Counted from the first letter of the stretch, positions 17,234 through 35,338 are shown. The stretch is DNA of 64,000 bases from Yuukianura sp. NJ FZ-2021 (GCA_046563655.1 CM102284.1:4650001-4714000); one strand, 5' to 3'. Notes: generated from the sequence alone by a model not told the origin. Numbers and translations are program-made.

Positions 17234-17560
17234 TTAAGTAGAAATCGGCTGGATCTTGTCACTGTCCGACTTAGAGTCGTCGCTTGTGTCGTCAGATGCT
17301 GGTGGTGCTCCTTTTGCTGCCAGTTCTTCTTCCAGTTGTCGAATACTGGCCTCTGTTGTTCTGAGAAAACGGACATGCTCGTTGTGGTAGCTCCTAACGA
17401 GATCTTGTCCATGCTGGATAGTTTCTTCATAGCCTTGGTCCAATTTGGCATGCCAGGGATGCAATACTGTCGTCTGGATGCCGAGAGCCGAAATACCGAC
17501 GACAAAATTCAAGTACGGCACTACAGAATTAATTTTTCTTCCAATGGATGACCCAGCCAT
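17234..17560 (-). CDS. Intronless 108-aa protein: single hydrophobic segment, HPWH motif, helical segment and acidic tail; nested antisense in a PKA-RII 5' intron
   Basis: GTCATGG start context; MAGSSIGRKINSVVPYLNFVVGISALGIQTTVLHPWHAKLDQGYEE...; more GC-rich and coding-like than the flanking intron; resembles (from recall, unverified) small uncharacterised fungal proteins with an NF.v..sAL.fQ..vLyPWH motif. Confidence 0.7.
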   Translation of the reverse strand: MAGSSIGRKINSVVPYLNFVVGISALGIQTTVLHPWHAKLDQGYEETIQHGQDLVRSYHNEHVRFLRTTEASIRQLEEELAAKGAPPASDDTSDDSKSDSDKIQPIST

Positions 17561-17963
17561 GACAGTTCTAGGAGAACGTGTGCCTTGATTAATCGATTAA
17601 ATAGTCAGTCACGACTTGATTAATCGATTGCTCACATTAAAACACGTCCAGCCTAACTTTCCCTCCAGTACTCCCCACACACCCCACACGGTCCACGTAA
17701 AATTTAGACGCAAATCAGATAACGTTTTAGAAAATTCTGTTGAGCTAGTTGGTTGTTTTCATTTTTATATTTGGAAACTTTGTAGCACCCGTTGCCATGG
17801 TGTTGAAATTTTTTGAGTTGTTTAAACATTTTAGTGTGTATGTTTCGAGGATTTTGAAAAAATCGGATTTGACTTGACTAACGGATTTTTGTTGTTCTAA
17901 ATTTCAGGAGGTGGTTGGATAGCTGTTGTTGAGAGACATCGAATCTTCTGAGTCAGTTTGAAA

Positions 17964-18347
17964 ATGGAGAATCGTCCAAGATATCGTGTTCCAGACGAAC
18001 TGCGTGAAACACTGCTTGACTTTACGATTGCCTACCTCCTCGAACGTCCCAACAACTTGGCCACATTTGGACTCAACTTCTTCCAGCGTCTAAAGGATGA
18101 ACATGAAGGTGGCGGTGGTACTGGTCCACGCCCTGCTCCAGCCACAGCCGTCAACGGCGGAGAGGAGAATGACATTGAAGGTAATTTTGCTCTAGACAAA
18201 CCCATTGTTGACTGGATTGTCCATTTTTCCATTGTGTACGTCATCGAGCAACCCGCCAATATTTATGACTTTGGAATTCTCTACTGTCGCAAGAAGGAAC
18301 GAGCGGCGGAAGCAGCAGCTTCGGCTATGGCCATCAGAACATATTAA
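17964..18347 (+). CDS. Predicted read-through isoform of PKA-RII with two tandem D/D domains (127 aa)
   Basis: The ORF stays open across the donor at 18181 and encodes [37 protein letters not shown], which aligns without gaps to the first D/D domain. Confidence 0.6.
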   Translation: MENRPRYRVPDELRETLLDFTIAYLLERPNNLATFGLNFFQRLKDEHEGGGGTGPRPAPATAVNGGEENDIEGNFALDKPIVDWIVHFSIVYVIEQPANIYDFGILYCRKKERAAEAAASAMAIRTY

Positions 18348-21300
18348 CTCGAGAGAATAGCTAAAGTTAATTCGAGGAAAGTTAACTAAAGTTATGCAGC
18401 CAAATCGCTCCAAAATTTCTGAAATTGCGGAAGAGTAAAGTGAAGTAAGAACGGAAATGGCGTTTCTCTCCTTGTCACGCTTTTACATTAACCTGAAAGT
18501 GTACTTTACTCTCGTTCTTCCCGTTTTTAAGTGGTTACTTATGATAGTTTCTCACGCTAGGTTGGAGTTTTAAGTTGGAGCTTAAAAGCGTTTTTCAGGA
18601 AGGAAACGCTAAAAAGTTTGGGCTGAACCATTAATTGTAAAGGTAATTAAACTAATTTAAAATCCAGGAAAAGTTGGACTAATTTTCGAACAAGCGAGGT
18701 TTTGCACATGCTATGCATGGCTGGATTTTCGTTTCGTGTACAATGGAGTCCTTAAAGTCCAAAGTTCTTACTTTTTTTTAACTTTGTGTAGCTTTTTAAA
18801 AAAAAAAGTTCTGAGATTGAATATGCTTTGGAACAAGTTTGAGAGTAGTTTTTCTTGTAAAGTTTAGTAGAGAGGAAACTAAACTTCAAATGGCACTTGA
18901 GTGTCAGGCTCCTCGTCCTTACAATTTGTAGGCTTTCCGGCTTTCTCATGTCAAGTTTTAGTTTTCCGAAAGTTTTCGGAAATTTCCGGACTAGTGACGA
19001 AGTTGTGCTGGGTGGATTTGATGTTAGTGAAGTGCAAAACTCTCGCGGAGGAAAGTAATTGGATTAAAACTCGAATTTTGTGTCATCAGTTTCATCTCCC
19101 CGTGAAGTTCGTAAATGTAGATAGGCTGTTTTCCACTTTTTAATTTTTCGGAAGCGGAGTTTTTTTTTTGTGAGTCTTAGCTTTTTAAAAAAAATGCTTG
19201 AAAGCTTAGGAGTTTTTTGAAGAGCTTTTTGGGAATTGAGCTTGAGTTGAAAGTGTAAAAAAAGAGAAAGCGATAGGGGCCCTTTTAAAATTTCGGGAAT
19301 GAAATTAGAACGCTACTGCAGCGCTGCCTGACTTTTAGTTAAAGGAAGAACAGGCTGATTTTTTATTTAAGATTGCTGGTTTTTTGAAAAGTGAACAATG
19401 GCTGCTGCTCTGTTCTCCTCTCGTGATCTTCTGTGACATTGTATGATTTAATTCATTTTGTTGTAAGGAAGAACGACTGGGCGGAAGTACATTATCATTT
19501 GACTGGAGTGCTCGTAGGAAGGAATAGGGAAAGAAATTGGGAAAATTTCCTCTTAGATGTTGGTTGGCTTTCTCTTTTTGCTTTTCCCGGTGGGAGTTGT
19601 CGGTTGCTTTTACTCTAGAAGAAGTTCCAGCCTAAAGGAGCCTAAAAACTAAAGAATCTCACTGGCGGAAGTAATAAGTGATCCTGTTCAAAGGTTCTAG
19701 TGGTTTTTTTGCTAACAAAAGTTTGCGAAAGACGAAAGAAAGCGGAAGGTTTTAGTTGAGTTTGAGCTGCTTTCGCTACTGGTCTTCGTTTTTGTTTGGA
19801 AATTGAATCCTGGTTAAGGTAACAACTCTGTGGTGGTGATAGCGGAAGTTTAGGAGGTTAGAAAAACAAAGTCTTACGTTTTAGGCGGGGAAGAAGAAGT
19901 TTTGAATGGCAACATGGTGCTTTCACTGCTTTCACTTGTGAAACTGAAGTTTATGTAGTTTTCGAATTGTGAAAGTGAGTGGAAGGTTTGAAAGAGAAAG
20001 TAAAGTTAGTTGGTGTGTGAAGGTACTTGAAGGGAAGTTGACTGTGGAATGGGTGTGCCATTTTTGTATTTGGAAGACTAAAGGTCAAGGTCAAGTTGAG
20101 AATACGCAAGTTATCTTCGTAAGATTGGATGGAGGAGGGGGAAGGTTAGTCGTTTCTTATTTTTAGACGAACCTTAGCATAAGGGTTATCATATTTCAGT
20201 TGCTGTTTAGTAAGTTTTTCTTGAGAGAAAGTAAAAATGGGTTGAGTTAGGTTAGTTTTAGGCTAAGGTCAAAGATCACATACTTCTCGTGTATCTTTCT
20301 AAAGCTTTGTGTGGAAGTGGGCAGATCAACAAGAGAAGAGACGGTGAAAATGAAAGAAAGTTAGTTTACACTTTAGGCCTTAAGGTTCAATGTTGAATCA
20401 GAAGAACTAACTTTGGACATTCTGGATTTTGTGGTTACTTTCCGTGTTTCCTTGTGTCAACTGTGTGTATTCTGTCACGTTTCTATTATTCTTTGGACTC
20501 TTTAGGTCTTGTGAGACTTTGGAAGGCCGTGCCGCTAGGATTAAGTGTTAGAAGGACTGTTGTGTGCTAGAGCGTAAGTGGGATTGTCTCTTCCTTTGGT
20601 TTCATTTTCTCAACACCTTAACTTTCTCGGGTTACAGTTAGAAAGGGGTGAGAAAGTGAAGAAATTCAATTCCCGGATGATATAAGATCCCTTATTCAAT
20701 GGAATTCTGGGAAAGAGACAAGTGGAAGTGGAGAAGATTCTGAAGTTCCACTTTCCCCATTGTCTTTTTCAGGATCTTTTGTCTTCGGCTTTGTCCGGAA
20801 GAAGTTTATTTCTCAAATCATTCTGGGAACAATGCCCTCGTCTGAGTTACTTTTTGAGTAGAAAAGTTGAGCGAAGAGGAATATAAAAGATTTATGGACC
20901 AACTGTTGAAAGATGGTAGCAATCTTGTGGGTTTATTTCTATGAATTTCTGAGATTTCTATGAAATGTTGAAAGAAAGTTGGTAAGTTTTGGCATATTTT
21001 CGTGGTTTGGGAGAAAGTTGTGTTAGGTTTGCCAAGAGACTGCGCTTATGAAAGATGTTCTTTGGTTATGAAAATTTTGGATCCATTTTGAATTTTGATC
21101 TTTTGAGACTGAATTTTAACAAAAGTCTTCTGAGACCTGGAGGGCTATGGTTCATCTGTTTCTGAGAAAATGTTGAGGTTACAAGCATTTTGGTGAAACT
21201 ACATAGACTTTTTGGTGGAACGGGAACTCTGGAAGTCTTTTGTTAGATAATTTGACTTGAACTTTCGGGCTAGAACTAGGCAATTTGGCTGTAAACTGCC

Positions 21301-24300
21301 TCCCCTAACGGCCTAAGTAAGGAGAATTATAATGGTTCAGAATCAGACGTCAGTTTCATCCGGGACCAGGGTAGTACACTCTGTCTTCACACTTTTTTTG
21401 ACTATGGATCTGTGGGACTAGAGGAATGGGACTAAAGAGATTAAGGGGGTACTCGGCAGGAGGAAAAGTTCCCTTCAAAAGTGCCTTCCATATTACTCGT
21501 GTCATATTTGGCAATGGAAGGCCTCAAATTGCATTCTTCATAAGTTTCCGGCCAGTAGCTGGATCCTGGATCCGTGGATCGTCAAGAGCAGTTTCACGGT
21601 GGGAACGTGCCAGGAAAGACTCTTCTTGGCACGGAGGTTCGTCGTAGTCAGCTATTCGGGAGACCAGTAGCAAAGGTCCTGGCCTAACTTTTACGTGTCA
21701 CTAGGTTAGAACTTCGAAGTTGGTGACGCTGAACGCTGGTCGCCCTAGGGTAAAGGCGAAACCTTCACCTAAACATGAACGTAGGTGGAGAGTAGCCTAG
21801 GAATTACCAGGAGCGATGTAAGTGACGTTCGTCGGTTCTGGATCTGTGCGAAAACCGCGAAGACATTTCTGGACTTGAACTTCCTCGTTGTGGTTTTCCA
21901 TTGAGAGTTCCAGACATGGACAAAGTGAACCAACTTCCTTGTTCTATACTACAATTACTCCTGCCTGGCCTGGGCAAGTCTATATGTTGGTTATTTTGAG
22001 ACTGGAGAGCAAGATAATTGATGACCTTTGACCTGCAACCTTTGAAATGTGATCCCGCCTTGACCTTGAGTGAAGACGTTTGATACGACTGAAAGTTGAG
22101 TGAGTCGAGATGACCTCTCGAGGGGGCTACAAAGTTCGGTCTGCTGGGGAATTTGTGAGTTGGTGAACGCTGGAACATAACATTGCAGAACATGAGTTTC
22201 ATTTCATGCGAATTTTACTGACTCTTTTCAAGTTGTGACTTTTGTGGGAAGTTTGGAGGCTGGAAATGCTTCAGCTGTTTGCTGCCTAAGTTCTTGCAGC
22301 GGAAACATTCCAGCGTTTCTTGAAATTTTAGAGACTTGGCTGTGAATGACGACGCTGCGGGATCACCGCTTGACGCTGTCAAGATAAGATGTCAGTGTTG
22401 GTTTGACGCTTGTGGGAACATCTGATCCAGCAAGCTTCGTCCTTAGCCTTAGGAAATTAATTGGAAGTGTTAAGATATTGTCGAAAGTGTAATAGGGTTT
22501 TGGTCTTAGTCTATAGGCTTTCTAAAGGAACGTCAACTCCAGTCGGAGCGACATTGACATCTGAGCAGGCTTATCGTCAAGGACCAGTTTTTGGTGGTTT
22601 TGTGGAAGTAGACAAAACTGGAGTCGTAGAAGTCAAAGTTAAGTGTTGGTGTTGATTTGGAAGTTTGTTGCGAAAGGAGCAAGATCTTGTTGAGGTGTGG
22701 CAGTGGCTTAGTTAGTACTAAAATTAAAAGTGGAAATGGAAATGTTCTCACCAGACGAAACCGCTGGGAAAGTTGGAACTGGAGGTAATTACATTTTATG
22801 GTGGATTAATTTCCTAAAAATTGGCTTTCTGTGTCCTCTACCTGGTAGCTTCTGATGGAGAAAGCAAATTTTGGTGCGTTTGGCAGTGGAATTGAACGGA
22901 GGAAGTCGTTTGGATCTTGACTTTCTCTTTACTCAAAGTTATTTGTGAAAGAGAAAGTTGGAAGACGGAGGGAATGGGAACTGATTTTTACTGGAGAGAA
23001 CTGAGGCGTGAAAATGATTAGAAATTGAACGTAGTTGGCAGTATAGAGACGCTACTACTAGATTCTCTCAGTTTCTAGTGTTCTATTGATTTTTTAGAAA
23101 AAAAGATGAGACTGAGAGGCTCAATTGTCAATCATGTGGAAATTGAAACCCAATGTATGACGCAGTACTAGTGTGGAAAAATTTTGGTGTACTTTGTAGT
23201 AGTTTGAAACTGGTTTTCTGGAATTCGGAGTTGGAATTTGAATAAATTCAATTTCTCTTCGTCTTTTGAAAGAGAAATATGTACAGAATGGAAAGATGTT
23301 TTTGTTTTTTGAAAGTAGGGTGCTTTATGGAAACAGAATTTTTATAAAGTTTGGAACGAAGATCTAAATTGAAGTTTTTTGTTTTTGATGCAGATGAAGC
23401 TCCTCCTCCCGTGCGTAACGTAGGACGAAGGAAATCCGTTTTTGCTGAGACGTACAATCCAGAGGAAGATGAAGATGACAAGCCATCAGTAAGTGAACTT
23501 TTCACCTTCACTGATTTCCCAAAGGCATTTTGAGTCTTTTGCTCTCTATCAGTTATAAAGTTCGGAATTGGAGAAAATGCGGGAGAAAGGCAGGAAGAGT
23601 TGTTTGGTTCAGAAAATGAGGTTTTTTGGAATGTAGCTTTCACTTTGATTTTTGTTTGTTTCGTTTTTTGTAAATATTGGTTTTAAGTTGAGTATTATTT
23701 CCGGGAATTCCAATCGGAGTTTTTACTTTTAACTTTCATTTTTAAATTACTGTTAGCTTTCTTTTTTTTTAGTTTGTTTTTTTTGAAACGGTGCCGCAGT
23801 ACTACTTGAAAAGTAAACTTCGGTGTATACTAGATTTTGGAAGCATGCGAATTTCAAAGCTCTTCAGTTTGGAAAGTTTGGCTAATTGGGTGGAAGTGGA
23901 AGTCATTTTCAGTGAGACGGCGGCAGGATTTGGGCTAATGGAGGATTTAAAGAAAATGTTCTGCGGAATTGATTCAGGCAGGAGAAAGCGAGTGAAAGTA
24001 GGAGCTTAAGGCTTGAGGCGGATTTAAACTTAAGTTTGCCCAATATTTGCACTATGGCGCTGGCTTGCTGGTCTCTGAAACCACTTTTTAGGCCTAGGCA
24101 GGTCGAATATTTGCATTTAAAAGAGCCTTAAGGGAACTAGGAAATTATGTTCTGCGTTTTCTTCCCGTAGGCATAAGCGATGTGAGTGAAAGCTTAACCA
24201 ACGTGTTTGAAATTTTGTTTTGCCAGGTATGCTCTAGACAGAAAACCTCCGTTTTACAGTTTAGGGTCTCATAAGAGACTGCGCTGAACGCTGAAAGGAA

Positions 24301-27300
24301 TTTTCATTTGAGCTGGTTGAAGTAGTTCCTGGAATTTGGGGATTTTGTAATAGAGCTTTTCATGTGCTCCTGAATAAGGTTCTTTTTTAATTACTTTTAA
24401 GAAATTGTTTATTTTGACTCTTGAGGAGGAAGAAAAAGATGGAAGAGTGGAAGGAAAGTTGTAACTAATTGAATTTATTTTTAATTTTCTAGGTAATTCA
24501 TCCGAAATCTGACAGCCAACGAGCTCGTCTTGCCGAAGCTGTGAAACATATCCTCCTGTTCCGTTCCCTTGATGGGGTAAGTAACAATGTTTTCAATTCT
24601 GCTTTCATGTTTTGAAAATTTTAGCTTTGTCTTGGGATTTTGAAACTTTATTTTCAACTTAAAAGTTGGGAGATGGAGGACGGAGGAGGAAGGATAGGAA
24701 TTGGTTTGAGATTTTGAAGTTTGTGCGAGAGAATGGCAGAATTTGTTTTGTCGTTGGAAAACTACAAAAGTTGGAAAGTTTTGTTTGTTGAAAGAAAAGT
24801 CAAGTTTGAAGTTGAACTTTTGGGGAACAAATAATTATTATGTTTGTTATCCTTCTGGACTTTTTTTCCCCGCTTGGAAAGTCTCAAATCCAGCAGAGAA
24901 AGTTAGGGCTGACGTTGTGTTGAGTGTTGGCGAGGTGAATGTGTCCGTGTTTCGCGTGACAGACCTCTGTAAGCCTGGAAGCCACGATTTCAAGACTTTA
25001 GTTGGAAAAGTTTATTTCTTTTTGGCAAAACGCAAAAGGAAAGCTGGAAAAGTGGCTGGAGAAAAGTGGAGGGCCTGGATGGCTTTGAGGTTCCTGGATT
25101 TTCCTTCTACTCTAGACGCCTTAAACCCGGAGGGTTAGCGTTTTTCCCGGGATAAAGTTGAATCTTCGGTGCCTTCATAAAACCTTTGAGCTTTGGTGAC
25201 TAAAAGTTAGAATATGGAACGTGAAAGTTGCCCTGGAAAGGTGAAAAGTTAATTGACAAACGAAACTTATCCGCGAGCTGAGCCTGGGTATCGAGTATCG
25301 ACTATCGTGATGTTGGCTTTATTTTAAGTTAGGTATGAGTATGTTAATTTCACCTGGATGTCGTGCTTTGTTTCTTTAACTAGGCGAGTGATGCTCTCCT
25401 ACTTAAGAATAAGCTCCCAATTAATGTCTACACGGGTAGTTTATTTTGGAAATGACTGAGAGCGTGAATTTGAGGGGAAAATGCTTTACTTGGAAGAGGT
25501 AGACATCCACATCAGTGTAAATCATGACGATGAAGGGAGATCAGGAGCCTAATATCATTAGTTTTTATATTGAATCGTCACGGTCGAGGAGTAGACGTCG
25601 GAGAGAAAGTCATTCACGTCCTGAAGTGGTTTTGGGAAGCTTTAAGTGTAGTCGTGATGATCTTCATTATATTTATCCACTGGGAGGGTTTTTCATTATA
25701 ATAAGTTTGAGGAACCTGGTTATGCTTTAGGTTGGGTTTTTATGACTTCCTTTTTCAGTTTATGTTAGGTTTGGTGCTTTTGACAGCGTAATGAAAGTCA
25801 CAGAATGAAAGGAGAGTAAGAGAAAGCAGAATGGAGCTGTCACCGGAAGGCGGGATTTTGGAAAGGTTAGAAGAGTGGAGAAAGTTAAAACATTAAATAT
25901 AATTAAATTACCTTGGAATTTTTAATTTTTTGAATGTAAAAGTTGGGTTTTGCATGGTAAAACATGAAGGAGAACTGAGGAAAAGAAATTTTACGTTTTT
26001 GAAATTTGCAATTTGTTCAGGGTTTTACATAAAATGAGGTTTTTCGCAATGCGGCTGGTGAAATTTAGTTTTCTCTTGGGTTTTGACTCTCTAGGAAGAA
26101 GGAATAAGGAATCGATTCATTGTTTGATGAAGACAAAGTGTGTCTGTCTGGAGAGGTGATTTACTTGGACACAGAATTGCTTCCTGGAAGGATACACAAA
26201 GATACAATATTACAATGGACAGCTTTTCCTTTTGTTTAGTTAGTCTTTTGTAGTGTGAGAGGGCTAAATAAACCGAGTGGTTTGGGAAAACCTAATGAGG
26301 CTGCTAATGAATATTCATGTTTTCCGGTTGGTCACTCTTCTGTTTCTAAAACCACGAGCTTGTTGGGAAGGCTAGTTTTACCAATTTTAGAAATTTGAGA
26401 CACAGCGAAATTTTCGAAAATTGGGAATCGAAAGTTGTGCTACTAAAAAGTTGTGAGTGAGGGAGAAATAATTTGCATTTCAAAAGTCTCTGGTTTTTTG
26501 GCTGGCGCGAATTTGCTATTGATTTTTCGCCAGTCTACTCTTTCTGATAATGATCAACGAGTGCTTTCTCTTTTCGGCATCTTGTACGTTAGGAACTGTG
26601 CATGGGTTGTGTAGGAATTTGGAATTTGGCGCTAATTGGAAAAACCATGAGTTAGGGGAAGGACTTGTTCCCTTGTGCCTTTGAGCCAAAACTTCCAGAA
26701 TTCTTCTGATGTTTGCTTTCTCTTTGATCACATTCACTGCTGGGGAGGTGACCATTATAAAACCTGAGCACTGGAGCAGATCTGTCTTCATTTAGTCCAA
26801 TGTTGGCCATTTTCTTTGACTTCCATTTTAGTATTTGCGTTTCTTCTTTCTAGCAGAGTATTCTATTTGAACAGGTCTAAGCTTCTATTCTTGTTCAAAT
26901 TTCTAACAAGGTTGATCCTAAAAGATGGATTTCATTTGACTAACAAGGAAACATGGAAGCTTAGACCCATTATTGTTGCCAAATGAGAAATGCTGAGAAC
27001 TCATGTTCTCAGATTTCAATTAGGGCTGGGAAATGGGAGAATCAAGGTCAAAAACGTTAGGAACTTGAGTGGAGAAAATAAAAATAAAAGTACTTTGTAA
27101 CGTTGCGTTCCAGATTCGCAATTATGTGGGGCAACATAATTGCGAATTTGGAAAGTAGTAAAGAGGATTTTGGTTGAAATTGTGGGAAGAAATACTTAAG
27201 TTTGGTATGCGTGGGAAGGAAGAAGAGAGGCTTAGAAGCGGATTGGTTGTTGAGGATGTTGTGCTCGATTTGGAAGTAATTGTTGTGCAGTTTAGTTTGG

Positions 27301-30300
27301 GAATTAGATTTTGGAGATTGGAGCTGAGTCTGAGGTTTTTAGACTACATGACTGCAATACACTTGGGAACGAGTTTTGTAGAATCTTCTGCGGTGCTGGA
27401 GGAGTGGATTAAATAAATGGTAAAAGCTTTGGAGATTTCATGCTCTGAGCAGTTTCTTTTTTGATTCTCCAGCGGAGACATGGGAGTAATTGAAAATGTT
27501 GAGGCGTTGATGTAAAAAGTGGTCGTGGTAAGCATTATTCTGTAAAGTAGATTTACCTTTCATTTTTGAAATGTTGCGCCAAAAGGCGTAGCAACCATCA
27601 CATCATGTTTTTCTTGGATGACTGGAGTTAAAGTACTATTTTACCTTGATGTTTTTTTTCCCCGGTAAGGTTTTAGGTTTTGTACTTTCTCCTTTGCCGC
27701 TTTCACTTTCTTGGAGTGCTTTGTCGGATTAAGGAAGAAGGGAACCTCATGATTTTTCCATTTGGAAAATAAGGGAAGTTGAAGGAGAAGGAAGCTTTTG
27801 GTTGGTTTTAAGGCTGGTGGGTTTTGGTGGGTCTCTTGATGGTTGGCGGTGGTGCTGGTGGGGCTCTTGATGGTTACTGGTGGTGGTGCTCGTGGTGGAG
27901 TTAGGGATAAGATGCCTGTCGATGAGCCTCGTTACGGAAAGCTATCGATCTTAAGGCCAGGGAAAGGCTGAAGCGTTTTACACTGCCTCGTAACTTTGTC
28001 TACGAGCGAGCTACACACAGCAAGGATCTTCTTCAAAGAAACTTTTGGTTTTGGCAGAACAAGAACTGCCGAATAGGTTTTTCTTTTAGGTCTATCAAAG
28101 TGGACGTAGGCTATCATTCTGTGTGTCCTTCTTGAAGATGGCTTCGTTGATGATGAAAAGTTTTACTCAGAGGCTGATTGGATACGAGATTGAAGTCCGG
28201 CGAAACGAGAACGGCCTTGTCGCTTGAGGCAGCTTTGGAGTCATGGTGACATGCTGAGACCAAGGTTCACCTGGAGAGATGGAGAAGTTAGTCAATATTC
28301 GTAAGGTAAAAGCTGGCATGAGCTATGCGATGAAGGAGCTAGGAGAATCGATCGGAAGTTTTGGATTCATATTCTGGGGAAAGGCTTACTACTTCGTGCT
28401 GCTTTTTAGGTCGTTGACAGAGAGAAAGCAGTATAGGAAGTTTGGTTCAAAACTAAAATGTAAAAGCTGTCAAAGACACGACGAGAAATTGAAACCCGCT
28501 GGGTGAAAGTTTTTGACATGACGGAAATGGCAACTGTAGAGAAATGAGAACTTTGGAAGTAAAACTTGGGATATAAAAGTGGCAACGAAGTACAAATCCG
28601 TGGAGGCTACTACATTATGTAGTAAAGTTAGAAAGTTACGAACATTAATGTGAAAATGAGTCATTGAGATGGTGATTAAGTAATGGAAAATAAATCTTGT
28701 TTTCCCCTGTGGGAAGGCGGTAGCAGTGTCGCTGGAAGTACCAGTACGGCCAGGATTTTGTAAGGTTTGGTGAATTTTAGGTTAGGCTAAAAGGTTAAGC
28801 CGGGCTGAGGATGCTCGGAGAAAGACAAATTTCGCTTTTAACATGTCTGTCTTTTGACTAATGCTTCAAACTGTTTTATTTTTCATGAAAAGGAAAGTGT
28901 TGTGCATAAAAATTTGAGTTCAGTGTCTGGCTGCTTTTTATAAAATGTGGCTAAATGGAGCTGGACATGGAAAGCGCTGAGAGTTTCCGTAGATTCAGCG
29001 TCACGACACGACGCGCTGTTTTGGCTTGGAGTTCCCATCATTCCCCTGAGTTATTGATTTTCTCTGCCTTTCTTCTGCTCGTTTTTATCATTTCCTTTGT
29101 CACGACGAAGGACTTTCTCCGTTTGAACTACTACTGCACGCTTCGGTGAGCGAACTGTGAATGCTACCTAGAAGATGCTGCTACTACTACGAGATGCTGG
29201 CTAGCAGTTCACCGCATTTATGCAATGGTTGCTTACAAGGAATGTAGATGAATGAATTTTACACGTTTATATAGGTAGTTGTACGCATTTCGTACGTAGA
29301 ACTTAAATTGAAAAAGAATAGGAATTCATCAAAGAGGGAAACTTTCCTCTCATTCAATTGGTAAACCCAACTACTAATATTTTTAGTAAATGCGTTTATG
29401 TAAATACGTAAATTTAGTAAATACTTCTGTAATTGATACATTACTACTCCACTATAACCGAAATTAACCTTCTCTGCCGATCATCAAACTATTAAATGTC
29501 ATCCGTCTGGATTTTTGCGTATATTTCAGTGTGTACTCCCACTTAGCGTCGATTGCAAGAGTCTTTATAAACATATTACAGTGGATTCTCTAAATAAGGG
29601 ACAGGAGCTCCTCCTCTTTCTCACTTTCACTCGAAGTCGCGGTACCGTAAAGTTTTAATTTTGGAGGGAACGTATGTTTCAGTTTATCGGCTTATTTTTT
29701 ACGATTGTTTTTTTTTGGTTAATTTTTTTTTTGGTGCGAAACAAAAGTAATTAGATAATTAAATGGAATTAACTAATATTAATATATATATATTATATAT
29801 ATATATCTGCGCACAACCTGCGCAACAGCGCACAACCTGCGCAACTGCGCACAACCTGCGCACAACCTGCGCAACAGCGCACAAACTGCGCAACTGCGCA
29901 CAAACTGCGCAACTGCGCACAACCTGCGCAACAGCGCACAAACTGCGCAACAGCGCACAAACTGCGCAACAGCGCACAAACTGCGCAACAGCGCACAAAC
30001 TGCGCAACAGCGCACAAACTGCGCAACAGCGCACAAACTGCGCAACAGCGCACAAACTGCGCAACTGCGCACTGTATATAATATATTATATTATATAACC
30101 TGTTTAATAAGGGTGACATTCACAACGTAATTTGCATATAATATACCATGTAATATTGATTCGTATATAGATATCACATATAATTAGCATTAATATATGA
30201 ATATTATGTATATTAATATTAATTATATACTCTGAACTTCGAAACAGGAAATTTTCATTAGAATGGTGTTCCTAGCCTTAAATTCCATATAACTGACCGT

Positions 30301-33300
30301 TTACCAGAAATCTTACGGTACTGGGGGAGGCGCCTACTACCAATCCTCCAATCGTGATTTTTTCCCTTATTTAGAGAATCCACTGTAACATTATTCTCCG
30401 CTAGTTTCCGTTTGTCTATTACGAACAGAACCAAGAAGTACTATGCATTTGCCGTAGTAGGTTACGATCTCGCGGTTATGTTTACTTCAACCCGGAGCTA
30501 GACGCGATTTTTTGCAAAACTTCACACACCCGGCTAGTAAATGTCAATTTTGCAAGAGAACCAACCTGGGCAGGCGTGGCGGAGCTGGTCTAACGCGATA
30601 GACTCGAAATCTATTTCCCTATGGGAGCACAGGTTCGAATCCTTTCGCCTGCGATTTTTTTTGCGCACCAAGTGCTAGGAACGATTTTACACCCTTTTTT
30701 AATTTTTATGCAGTATTTTTTACTTTTGTGCATGTGAATTAAAATGAACCAAAGTGAATGTGAAACAAAATGCAACAAAGACGGTATATTGAAAAAATTT
30801 AATTTTGTTTAACTTTAGTACATTAATTTCATTTAGTATTTCAATTTTTTGCATTTATCTCACCCTGCAATGCTAGAACACCACGCTCCAACTCTGAAGG
30901 CGGGTTATTAGGGATGGTGTACTAATTAATTTTTGCCCAGCTGAGAGTGATGTACTATTTCATTTGGAAGTGGTGTACGATTTGGAAATTTACGGTACAT
31001 ACACCAGATAAAGATACTGGATAATGTTAGCTAAAGAGACCTACGAAAAGAACCATCATCGCTAAACCTTGTTATTATTTTGTTGCGAACGAGAACTTAT
31101 TTCAGAAAGCCTTTCCATATAGCGTGTGGCGTGCCGTAAAATATTGCGAAATTTTGAGGTTTTGTGAAATGTAGTTTTGAGGAGAGCAAATAATTCTTCA
31201 GAGACAAAGACGAAACGGAAGGTCGGTTTTCCAGAGCTCGTTCTTCATGTTTGAGTAATTTTGGCTGGAAAATGTGGTGCTGGAAGGAAGATGATTTAGC
31301 TGCTGGAAAAAATGATGCTGCGCCAGCGATTTTTTGCTGTTTCGATTCTTTTGCCATTTTTAAGTGTAATTCTGCTGAGTCGGCTGTTTCATGACGGCGA
31401 ACGATCAAACTTTTTTTTTTCGAAGCCTGGAGATGTTTTGGAGAAAGCTACCTCTTTTATTTATTCGTTTAACGAGAATGTGGATATCGCTCTTGGCTAG
31501 AAACTTGTTTGAACAAGAATAGGATTTTTTTTTTAACTTTTTCTCTCTCTTTTCTGTGTTCAATTGGATTGGACGAAATTAAAGGTGACCAGTGACATTG
31601 AAGAGTCAGTGTAGCATTTCATAGTCAACGAAATTGCCTTAGTCTCTGGGGACAAGGTTCTTCCATTTCTGGAGATTTTAAACCTTTGGGGGAAAGCACG
31701 GACGCTGGAGTTTCCAGCTCTGTAACTTTGTACAGAAGGAAAATGTATCCTAGGATTTCCTCCTTTCTTCTGTACTTTCACTCACGTTTCAACCTAACTC
31801 CACTTGGCTCTTCCCTTTTTCCATGTTCCGAACGTCTTAAGCCTGCTCACGCTGAAACCTCCATCCTGAAAGTGGGAGAGAAACAACGGGGGTTTTTTAT
31901 ACAGTTTCTACTAGTATATTCCGTTTTTCAGTTCTAGATTCTAAATTCTAGTTTTTCAGCATCTGCTCTCTGCCTGAACAACCTGACGAAGCAAGTCTTT
32001 ACGAAATAGGCCGGAAATTGCTGAACAGAGACTGAAAAAGTAGCTTGTTTCGAATTCCAGCTTCAGTAAGGAATTACGAACATATCGAATCGTGAATTGA
32101 AATTTGATAGATTTTTGAAAGGAGATGCTGGTAATCAGGATTTGTACGTAAACGTAACGCGTTTTGAATTTCATGGCATCCAAAATTTATTCGGGATGAA
32201 TTTCGAATTTAGTTTCCAACGTCAGAAAAACTACTTCAGAGGAATTGAAAATTTTTAGAAATAGTACAAGGTCGCCTACGTAAGAATCTTGGATTACGTG
32301 CTCCAGTTAAGTTATTACTTTTGGTAATGACCTTGCAGGCAAAAATGTTTTTGCGACCGGAGAGAGATTCCAGATTTTCGCTGGAATTGGATTGGTTAAG
32401 CTGGATTTATCTCTCATTTTTGGTTGGTTTAAAGTTTAAATCTTTTTTGTCATCGCTTTAAGCGCAACAGGATGTTGTACGGCGCAGAGTTCGGGTTTTA
32501 GACGGAGACCTACTTTTCATCTTTGCCAGAACGAAAAAGATGAGGTTGATCTTGGGATGAAGGAAAGATGAAATTATGGAGCTTGCCTGCGTTTTTGAAT
32601 TTCAATCAGTTTCTCTCTTCTCTCCTAGGCCGAGTTTCAACAGCAAGATCAATTGAGAAGTTCTGGGTTGAGTCAGTTGCCTTCTCCCTTTGTATAGATT
32701 CTTGCAATCGCTGAATCGCTAATGTCTGGTGTTTGTTATGCTCTGAAGATGGGCTGGCAGTAATAGGCACAGGCTTCCGATTTCTGTTCTCCTTCTCTTC
32801 TAATTTTTACACACGAATGGACGTTTCCGACACTGGAATAGATCTGCTTGTCATGCTGAATTAGCTGCTATAATCGTTTTTAGCTGTCTAACGTTTTGTG
32901 TTGCTACATGCTAAAATTATATTGTACTCGGATCAGTTAGTAAGATTAATCGCTGCGGAAAATTGGAAAATGAAGGATTTTGAGATGTAATCGGAAATTG
33001 ACCTTGTAATGTCAGGACTTTTGGAAAGTGGAACGTATGCATGACAGAGCCGACATTTACAAATTTTGTCTACTAGAAGAAATTACCCATATCTTTCGGA
33101 TTTTAGCGTTTGGAGCGCACTTTAACTTTCTCTTGCGCTCCCGTGTGTGCTTCCTAACTGGTGTTCATTCCATTTGTAGGGATAATAATGGGAAGATTTT
33201 CTTTATGAATTATGTCCGTGGGCTTTCTTCCAGAAATATGCTTTGGGAAATGGAGAAAAGGCTTAGGGAACGTCATATACAACGGTAGGATATTAGTGGG

Positions 33301-35338
33301 AACTCTAAAGGCTGACGGTAACTTCGTAGTTACGAAGTTCATATAATGCCTTACATAACTTTTGCAGGGGAAAAGATCTGGGAAATGAGGCTGGAGGGGG
33401 AAAACTGTTAAATCCCTAGAGATTTTTTTTTTGGAAAACGAACCATGACTCGCTCTTTTACTTTATGATTAATTCTCTGATTTTTCGTTTTTTCTTTGTA
33501 GCAACAAATGCAAGAAGTGCTGGATGCCATGTTTGAGCGAAAAGTTCAGAAAAATGAGTATGTCATCACACAGGGTGAAGATGGAGACAACTTCTACGTT
33601 ATTGAGTCGTAAGTGGGAATTGTAAATTTTTTATTTCTTGTTGAGTTAATGGATGATCCAGTTGTGAAGGCGGAATTGGTTTAATAAATCTTCATCATTT
33701 TTGTCTTGTTGCAGAGGAAACTATAAAGTATACGTTCAAAATGATGGTGAAGCAGCTCCACGTGCCGTGGGGGGATATCAGGGCAGTGGAAGTTTTGGAG
33801 AATTGGCCCTCATGTACAGTAAGTTTGCTTCTGCGTTTATTATTCAAGTTTATCAGAAGAAGCGATGGTTGGCCTGTTCAACTTTCGCATCATAAAGATG
33901 CAGAAAATGGCTAGGTTTGATCTTGTTTATTTTCTTTTCCCTAGATATGCCAAGAGCTGCCACGGTTCAAGCTGAGTCCAATGGTTCACTCTGGGCAATG
34001 GACCGACAAACCTTCCGTAGAATTGTTCTGAAGAATGCCTTCAAGAAACGTCAAATGTACGAGACGCTCTTGAACCAAGTCCCGATGCTGAAGACGCTCG
34101 AAGTAAGTTTTTCGAATGCTGCGTAGAAGTTTTCTCAGGATTTTTGGATCTTATGCCCAGTATATCTGCGACCTCGGGCTGCACTACTGCTGCTGAAGAG
34201 TGTAGCTTCCTTGAAGTGGCCCATGCCTTTTCCAATTACGATTTAATATGGTGTTCTGGTGGCTGACGTCAGATTTGCCCCAGTTCTGGGGAAATGACGC
34301 CCCCACAAACAATGGGGAAAGAACTCTCATAATTGCAATTTTCATTTGTTCTTTTCCTCTTGTCTTTGGTGTGAGCGAGCTTCCCGACCCCAATCTCCTG
34401 TCCTTATGAATTGAATATTGACGGATGACACCAATATTCGACAGCATAAAAATAGAAAACGCTTATTCCAGGGCATTCCTTGTCATGACAAATCTAGGTT
34501 CCCTTTTGCAATCGAATACTTTAGATACGCCCCCTTGGTTAAGAGTTGTTTTCATGCTTATGTCCAGGAAAGCGCCTGACTGAATATTTATCAGAACGCG
34601 AAATGGATTCTTATGGATTCTGGTGCTAATAATATTTTGTTTATATTTCAGAATTATGAAAGGATGAATTTAGCTGACGCTCTCGTTCCCCGAAGTTACA
34701 GTAACGGTGAACTGATTATTCGACAAGGCGATGTGGCCGACGGAATGTATTTTGTAGAAGATGGAACTGTCCGTGTCGTCCGAGTTGACAACAATGGGGA
34801 AGAAAAGGAGGTAACACGGATCAGTTAATTCCATCATGTCTATGTAGTGTAAGTGGTGTTGACATTGGGATTGTTTGTTTACGTTACAGTTGACTCGCAC
34901 GTCAAAAGGTGGATACTTTGGTGAACTGGCTCTTCTGACGAGTAAACCCAGAGCAGCTACTGTTATGGCAGATGGGAATGTAAAAGTTGCATGTAAGTGC
35001 TATTCAAGTATTCAACTACTGCCGCTGTTAGCTTTGACTAAAATAACGGTTTCCGCCTTCAAAAGCAAAAAGTTGGACATTTTCCAGCTTTTTCTTTCGG
35101 AGAGAACGGATTGTACAATTCAAAGCTGAAAGCTGTGGATTCTGTTTAAAAAAGTTAGTGTTGCAGTAAACTGTGGATTCAAGATGTTTTTGCTTGTCTT
35201 TGTTTAGTTTTGGACGTGGACGCCTTCGAGCGCCTTCTCGGACCGTGCATGGAGATCATGAAGCGAAATGCGGAAGGCTATGAAAAACAGCTAATCCAAA
35301 TCTTCGGTTCAAAGAATAATATAAAAGACATACGGTGA
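17964..35338 (+). CDS. Pka-R2: cAMP-dependent protein kinase type II regulatory subunit; exons 17964-18180, 23394-23488, 24493-24576, 33502-33608, 33715-33818, 33945-34102, 34652-34810, 34890-34992, 35208-35338
   Basis: RIIa D/D domain [21 protein letters not shown]; inhibitor site with phosphorylatable Ser RRKSVFAE (type II); VIHPKSD; two cNMP domains with [15 protein letters not shown] and [23 protein letters not shown]; all nine exons join in phase. Confidence 0.96.
29579..30385. mobile_element. Tc1/mariner/pogo-type non-autonomous element (807 bp), TA TSD
   Basis: Perfect 23-bp TIR CAGTGGATTCTCTAAATAAGGGA / TCCCTTATTTAGAGAATCCACTG; TA at 29577-29578 and 30386-30387. Confidence 0.9.
29808..30074. 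repeat. GC-rich minisatellite, unit about 20 bp GCGCACAA(A/C)CTGCGCAAC(A/T), flanked by TA-rich tracts
   Basis: Directly visible tandem units; accounts for the repetitive ORFs called in several frames at 29759-30119. Confidence 0.95.
30570..30653 (+). tRNA. tRNA-Ser(CGA), intronic
   Basis: Acceptor stem GCAGGCG/CGCCTGC plus discriminator G; A-box TGGCGGAGCTGG; anticodon arm ATAGA-CTCGAAA-TCTAT; long variable arm TTCCC-TAT-GGGAG; B-box GGTTCGAATCC; T-run Pol III terminator immediately downstream. Confidence 0.93.
30905..30997. mobile_element. Orphan right-end fragment of a pogo-like element related to 4536-5662
   Basis: GGTGTACTAATTAATTTTT ... TGTACTATTT ... GGTGTACGATTTGGAAATTTACGG-TA mirrors the right end at 5569-5664. 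Confidence 0.7.

Follow-up and report, generated by a model that had tools for sequence, protein, structure and literature searches.

D/D domains are modules that need two chains to make an AKAP-binding surface. A single unit spans about 40 residues folded as a helix-turn-helix, as in the RII D/D homodimers (2izx, 2hwn, 1r2a and 4zp3; yeast 6xqk), and the accessible part of the D/D superfamily paper (PMC8339350) describes the known RII D/D bundles as symmetric two-chain dimers. The same paper reports that the SPA17-ROPN1L D/D heterodimer binds AKAP18 at nanomolar affinity, making an unlike D/D pair a high-affinity AKAP-binding module. SPA17 and ROPN1L are R2D2, or D/D-only, proteins; these have an RII-type D/D without an inhibitor site or cAMP domains, are encoded by separate genes and carry one D/D per chain. 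Truncated decoy isoforms, of which C. elegans DAF-2B is an example (accessible part of PMC10234397), keep a binding module and lack the signalling part. Where such decoys arise by intron read-through or intronic polyadenylation, the intron usually adds few arbitrary residues.

The locus described here, a PKA type II regulatory subunit gene, resembles each of these systems and departs from each. Its predicted 127-aa product, like the R2D2 proteins, has RII-type D/D units and neither inhibitor site nor cAMP domains; unlike them, it would come from the RII gene, as one of its isoforms, and would carry the two units on a single chain. The two units are unlike, as in the SPA17-ROPN1L pair. Since they share a chain and are identical at only 8 of 30 positions, any bundle that they formed would be intramolecular and asymmetric, in contrast to the RII homodimer. 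Compared with decoys made by read-through, the intron here would contribute an entire domain, conserved and folded, as a second version of the one in the exon. In the literature searched, in which subscription journals were thinly covered, we came across neither a chain with two D/D units nor an RII gene with a short D/D-only isoform, and the literature on Collembola and PKA, on intronic polyadenylation with D/D or AKAP, and on Drosophila Pka-R2 isoforms held nothing relevant. The phrase 'two RIIa domains' in PMC3494852 refers to RI versus RII domains and not to a tandem, and in the accessible part of PMC8339350 'tandem' is used of cAMP pockets only. A sequence-only reading of this DNA had known of no description of the arrangement, and none turned up in the literature searched. 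What would be new is an architecture and an origin for a known domain.

The gene lies on the plus strand of the window (the whole stretch of DNA analysed, 64 kb, from a springtail-like genome), and exon 1 and intron 1 host the finding. A spliced RII protein of a relative (L003, 394 aa) maps by tblastn across the window from 17964 to about 35335 with its residues 1-391. The coding part of exon 1 occupies 17964-18180 (ATG at 17964; 72 codons plus 1 base, phase 1). It is preceded by a putative 5' UTR part of the exon at 17908-17963, which follows an acceptor-like ...aaatttcag|G with its AG at 17906-17907; a similar acceptor, ...aatttccag|G, stands 5' of the ATG in the related locus L001. Exon 1 ends at GAAG|GTAATT (18180/18181; donor 18181-18186). 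The same end point is joined to the RRKSV exon in three spliced relatives (L003, L004 and P0015), with the canonical donor in all three. Exon 2 (23394-23490; acceptor ...gatgcag|AT, donor CAG|GTAAGT) is situated 5.2 kb 3' of exon 1 and encodes the inhibitor site with its phosphorylatable Ser (RRKS at 23426-23437, RRKSV to 23440). The remaining exons, for the cAMP-binding domains, extend over 24493-35335, bounds that are approximate and come from tblastn segments (L003 residues 111-391). Pfam domains, scanned on the L003 protein, comprised RIIa and two cNMP_binding stretches (145 bits). With an N-terminal RIIa D/D, an RRxS inhibitor site and two cyclic-nucleotide-binding domains, the locus is, judged from sequence, an RII gene.

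Unit 1, the canonical RII D/D domain (residues 6-46, 17979-18101), was recognised by Pfam RIIa, by AlphaFold2 (AF2) modelling and by structure match. The RIIa profile covers residues 13-46 at 23.8 bits in the 127-aa ORF, against a cut-off of 22.4, and scores 21.2 bits on exon 1 alone. A tblastn search of the 64 kb revealed one copy of exon 1 and, besides that copy, the second unit described below (18204-18302, E 0.024).

Several other features were recorded in and around the gene. A tRNA-Ser with anticodon CGA (84 nt, 30570-30653, plus strand; Rfam 54.1 bits, also called by ARAGORN) is located in an RII intron on the same strand as the gene. The same long intron contains a tandem array at 29809-30072, with the 19-nt unit GCGCACAAACTGCGCAACA in 14.3 copies at 90% match, which yields long spurious ORFs in all frames. 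About 370 bp 5' of the RII start, a 120-aa open frame on the minus strand (17234-17596) may be an exon of a divergent neighbouring gene; Pfam gave a single match for it, a weak one to DUF6594 (E 0.035, 14.5 bits, below cut-off). In the relative L004, the coding frame is lost at about 1100-1260, after ..SVPMLKTLE, into intron-like sequence, and L004 looks like a partly spliced transcript retaining a later intron.

Beyond the exon-1 donor the reading frame stays open. The ORF at 17964-18347 encodes 127 aa, of which residues 73-127 (55 codons) lie past the last full exon-1 codon, and it terminates at a TAA (18345-18347). Unit 1 is followed by a Gly/Pro/Ala-rich linker (residues 47-73, 18102-18182), whose last codon is the Gly codon G|GT spanning the donor and whose length and sequence vary among relatives. 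Next comes unit 2, a diverged second D/D-like unit (residues 74-111, NFALD...YCRKK, 18183-18296) recognised by homology, conservation and the AF2 model, and then a C-terminal tail (residues 112-127, with the stop 18297-18347) defined by translation of the ORF. The stretch 18181-18347 contains seven GT dinucleotides, the last at 18286 within the Cys codon that closes unit 2. The sequence-only reading had described an open frame of about 55 codons, a linker of about 28 aa rich in Gly, Pro and Ala, a gap-free alignment of the two units with 8 of 17 core residues identical, and no GT between unit 2 and the stop; each of these descriptions proved accurate.

The likeness of the two units was evaluated in several ways. 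BLASTP of residues 1-72 against 73-127 returned a gap-free alignment of 30 positions, 8 of them identical and 21 positive (27.7 bits, E 9e-7). The Smith-Waterman score of unit 1 against unit 2 was 54, a value reached by none of 5000 shuffles of unit 2 (mean 19.0, sd 3.5, maximum 46); the best other window among 1014 windows of 55 aa, taken from intron 1 in six frames, scored 37. On these comparisons the likeness is beyond chance. In register the units share 46 of 102 nucleotides, which agrees with the earlier remark that the resemblance is at the protein rather than the DNA level and, being so low, points to an old duplication.

Assignment of unit 2 to the D/D family depended on the sensitivity of the method. 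The Pfam RIIa profile (PF02197), proposed in the sequence-only reading as a check on the extension, gave no match to window residues 73-127 even at E<=10, and among 14 unit-2 sequences it matched one, at E 0.12 and below the gathering score. Profile-profile comparison, in contrast, was clear: hhalign aligned the unit-2 profile with the unit-1 profile with a probability of 98% and an E of 2.8e-13, the 39 aligned columns being in exact register. The unit-2 profile also recovered the canonical D/D of Orchesella (93%, E 3.5e-7) and Folsomia (95.4%, E 1.8e-8). Against the PDB it returned ten sequences at E<=10, all of them RII-alpha D/D chains and each weak (E 0.13-0.53). By the sensitive tests, and not by the Pfam threshold, unit 2 is thus homologous to the canonical RII D/D. 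The BLASTP, shuffling and hhalign results agree with the old D/D duplication that had been proposed, and indicate that unit 2 is a true, old and diverged duplicate of the D/D unit. Orthology of unit 2 to SPA17, ROPN1, ROPN1L or CABYR is unlikely, because unit 2 appears to derive from RII exon 1.

AF2 modelling of the 127-aa chain with an alignment of 17 sequences produced four helices at a mean pLDDT of 80.7 and a pTM of 0.70. The helices span residues 11-27 and 32-48 in unit 1 and residues 79-95 and 100-126 in unit 2. Both units reach a pLDDT of roughly 90 or higher, with about 95 in unit 2, and only linker residues 51-68 fall below 50. The unit-2 model superposes on the yeast PKA D/D 6xqk_A (Z 5.4, rmsd 1.1 A, 47 of 47 residues aligned over 76-123) and on the PKA D/D fusion 5h78_A (Z 5.5, rmsd 1.1 A, 51 aligned), both in the top 4 of a structural search of 48,161 chains (VIA; query residues 76-127), where Z below 8 is common for helical models and a Z of about 5.5 lies in that range. 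The unit-1 model matched 2izx_B at Z 4.1 and rmsd 1.6 over 41 residues. Foldseek against the PDB had no match at E<=0.001. We take the structural match as supporting evidence for unit 2 and not as proof. Unit 2 is predicted to fold as a D/D-type helix-turn-helix, and the earlier suggestion of a D/D-like fold is to that extent upheld by the model.

We then turned to relatives. A first search with the 127-aa ORF against proteins of 69-223 aa gave 23 matches that share a near-invariant exon-1 peptide. One (P0015) is spliced onto the RRKSV exon. Nine contain unit 2 (P0001-P0006 and P0008-P0010; 116-172 aa), with a stop 3-22 residues after it and the unit-2 consensus LDxxxxxW[IL]xxFxxxYxxExPxD[IL]xxFGxxYC. 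The other thirteen (P0007, P0011-P0014 and P0016-P0023; 13 of the 22 unspliced exon-1 ORFs) have no unit 2 or are cut short. A search of all representative proteins with unit 2 alone gave seven matches at E<=0.001. Six are short chains of 121-176 aa with two matched stretches each, one for either unit, and four of these were new (P0025-P0028). A match in P0024 (1103 aa, nine matched stretches) was taken as spurious on account of its repetitive sequence. Three close variants (P0029-P0031) were added. In all, the read-through ORF with unit 2 occurs in 16 other short predicted proteins of 116-188 aa, which are ORF calls or gene models, mostly on short contigs, and do not constitute evidence of expression. 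Together with the window they form an alignment (A2) of 17 tandem sequences, the relatives being 33-69% identical to the window.

Across the tandem sequences W84, Y92, P97 and Y107 are invariant or nearly so, and the stop follows the conserved Y-C by 3-37 residues. At the donor codon most sequences encode Gly and a single one Ser (xGT), consistent with conservation of the donor. Conservation goes further in P0006/P0010/P0027/P0028, a subgroup that shares the tail ..NEKxRWAY[AN] and the place at which the frame stops. All named proteins among the matches are from springtails, and Allacma fusca CAG7728033.1 is the only one that carries unit 2. The gene models Folsomia candida OXA41722.1 and Orchesella dallaii CAL8103237.1 do not contain it; in them the unit-2 profile finds the canonical D/D only. 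The expectation that unit 2 would persist in the orthologous introns of relatives was therefore borne out in part: it is kept in the 16 other proteins and is absent or cut short in 13 of the 22 unspliced relatives. Among the springtails sampled, unit 2 appears to be confined to a part.

Two lineages show further variation. In P0010 (residues 88-132), and likewise in P0027, P0029 and P0031, the linker is lengthened by a conserved insert of some 50 residues, ..ELxDGGVVSKAEFRxKIxTxHALDIAKIGAG... AF2 predicts a helix at residues 105-120 of the P0010 insert at pLDDT below 50; docking of this segment on the D/D units is an idea only. In P0009, unit 2 has a 9-residue insert in the turn between its helices, and in its close relative P0012 the sequence breaks off after ..ILDDMV, where unit 2 begins, either at a stop or because the contig ends. 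Unit 2 may be decaying in the P0009/P0012 lineage.

Selection was assessed with the DNA of two relatives, namely L001, at 73% protein identity, and L002, at 50%; the RII contigs L003 and L004 are spliced and resemble cDNA. L001 is DNA or unspliced RNA, as judged from its upstream acceptor and intron sequence, and has no bearing on a mature short message; its record prefix is shared with the spliced L004. Between the window and L001, pS was 0.66-0.77 in every part, near saturation, and over the window and related loci it ranged from 0.64 to 0.85; as several pairs had pS of at least 0.75, at which dS is not estimable, pN and pS are given instead of dN/dS. Between the window and L001, unit 1 had a pN of 0.04, and the linker and unit 2 each had 0.21; the pS of unit 2 was 0.77. 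In unit 2, first, second and third codon positions account for 9, 6 and 22 differences, respectively (binomial p 0.001). By blastn the two loci align over 17960-18295, from 4 bases 5' of the ATG to just past YCRKK, and no further except for the 66-nt block described below. In the tail, 5 of 11 residues are identical and third-position changes are present.

Despite saturated synonymous sites, the frame and the hydrophobic pattern are kept between the window and both related loci. An unconstrained stretch at such divergence would lose frame and likeness, and unit 2 therefore appears to be coding sequence under purifying selection, weaker than that on unit 1. The proposal that selection had kept the duplication is in line with the pN of 0.21 against a pS of 0.77, the third-position excess and the conservation in relatives. 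Were the extension instead a decaying relic of a tandem exon-1 duplication, or a chance ORF, never translated, the lack of a Pfam match on unit 2 and its absence from many relatives would be readily understood. However, frame, stop region and hydrophobic pattern are kept at saturated pS in 17 sequences that share only 33-69% identity with the window, differences are in excess at third positions, and DNA likeness ends directly after unit 2. We regard a relic or chance ORF as very improbable, and these same observations argue for selected coding sequence.

How could unit 2 be translated? It has no in-frame ATG before M122, which rules out a separate start codon. A cassette exon was likewise ruled out, since unit 2 begins about 2 codons past the donor and the acceptor ...ctctag| (18195) would leave a 15-nt intron. 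Having neither a start of its own nor a cassette exon, unit 2 would be translatable only from the exon-1 ATG, on a message in which the donor is unused. Such a message could arise by retention of intron 1 or by cleavage and polyadenylation inside it. The exon-1 donors, GTAATT in the window, GTAACT in L001 and GTACCA in L002, are off consensus at +5 in three of three, and three other donors read in the RII gene of the window are GTAAGT. These hexamers fit an inefficient, regulatable exon-1 donor, though few loci were compared and the read-through codons also restrict which bases can occur there. Poly(A) hexamers 3' of the stop (window +299 and +716; L001 +697 and +1072; L002 +719 and +964) are no denser than the window background of 1.5 per kb and are uninformative. 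Exon 2 was not found in the downstream 1.1 kb of L001 and 3.1 kb of L002.

Intron 1 also contains a block of 66 nt (19430-19495, no strand assigned) that is 75.8% identical by blastn to L001 3052-3112. It lies 1.08 kb after the unit-2 stop in the window and 1.04 kb after it in L001. An AATAAA is present in the L001 copy and not in the window copy. L001 ends 15 nt past the block, which may be longer.

Splicing could also include unit 2. A longer exon 1 using a candidate alternative donor in the Cys codon (T|GT, 18285/18286; GTCGCA, 18286-18291) would gain 35 codons and place a second D/D in full-length RII, before the inhibitor site. The GT at 18286 is the only other one in the phase of the canonical donor (phase 1), TAC TGT is kept in all three DNA loci, with T|GTGAAA there in L001 and L002, and stops within 3-37 codons are what chance would give in an intron. 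Yet the window hexamer GTCGCA is a poor donor, and in P0027 Tyr replaces the Cys, which excludes the GT. The tail past the Cys is coding-like between the window and L001 and is kept to the stop in P0006/P0010/P0027/P0028. Moreover, unit 2 was found in no protein over 188 aa in the searches of longer proteins, which is weak evidence, and the search of the whole library gave short forms only, apart from the repetitive P0024. An alternative donor in the Cys codon seems to us improbable. The reading we prefer is a short isoform that runs through the exon-1 donor to the stop at 18345-18347.

In that short isoform, a donor-skipping message would encode a 127-aa chain composed of a D/D unit, a disordered linker of about 28 aa and a D/D-like unit, without the inhibitor site and the cAMP-binding domains. 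The AF2 models bear on whether the two units pack together. In the window model 93 of 127 residues have pLDDT of at least 70, at the pTM of 0.70 given above; in the P0010 model 81 of 172 residues do, at a pTM of 0.50. A single unit makes up only about one third of the chain in the window and about one quarter in P0010, so that these pTM values imply that both units are confidently placed. From the definition of pTM, we infer that the models hold the two units in one fixed arrangement. A prediction of unit 1 (residues 1-50) and unit 2 (73-127) as a complex scored 0.02 against a mark of 0.34; it was run without the tandem alignment and without controls and counts neither way. Most likely the two units would close into an intramolecular, asymmetric version of the RII four-helix bundle.

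A short isoform might also be made and work in trans, one or both of its units pairing with D/D domains in other chains, either full-length RII or further D/D proteins, and giving cross-links or RII 'half-dimers'. One exon encodes both unit 1 and the D/D of full-length RII, which are therefore identical; D/D domains of different proteins can heterodimerise (accessible part of PMC8339350); and the linker is long and disordered, and much longer in the P0010 subgroup. Against this stand the pTM values of both single-chain AF2 models, which fit an intramolecular arrangement, and the general principle that a tethered partner is present at very high local concentration. Action in trans is in our view unlikely, and closure of the two units upon each other within one chain is the arrangement considered below.

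In mammalian RII, AKAP-binding determinants reside in the stretch N-terminal to helix I. In unit 2, L77 of the LD motif is nearly invariant; its counterpart in unit 1 is V9, which lies in that stretch ahead of helix I. A tandem product of this kind could sit on AKAP helices, or cover the D/D of RII itself, while bringing no kinase. On balance we lean towards a conserved short tandem-D/D isoform made by intron-1 read-through, with unit 2 as selected coding sequence, an intramolecular bundle and possible occupation of AKAPs. A bolder proposal, tentative and on present evidence rather doubtful, is that in springtails a weak donor of the PKA-RII gene is skipped in a regulated manner to give a natural D/D pseudo-dimer made of a single chain, that this chain binds AKAP helices and tunes or competes with PKA-II anchoring, and that it has been kept over deep Collembola divergence, with an extra conserved linker segment in one subgroup.

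If the short isoform is real, a natural protein with two unlike D/D units per chain would be a new architecture of the D/D domain and a natural template for single-chain AKAP binders. The locus also illustrates that 'intron' sequence just 3' of a donor can hide a whole conserved domain, which gene models miss or call as a stray short gene. For the springtails that carry unit 2, the RII gene would encode in its own intron an inbuilt, kinase-free competitor of PKA anchoring, and control of PKA localisation by a splicing choice at a single donor would become directly testable.
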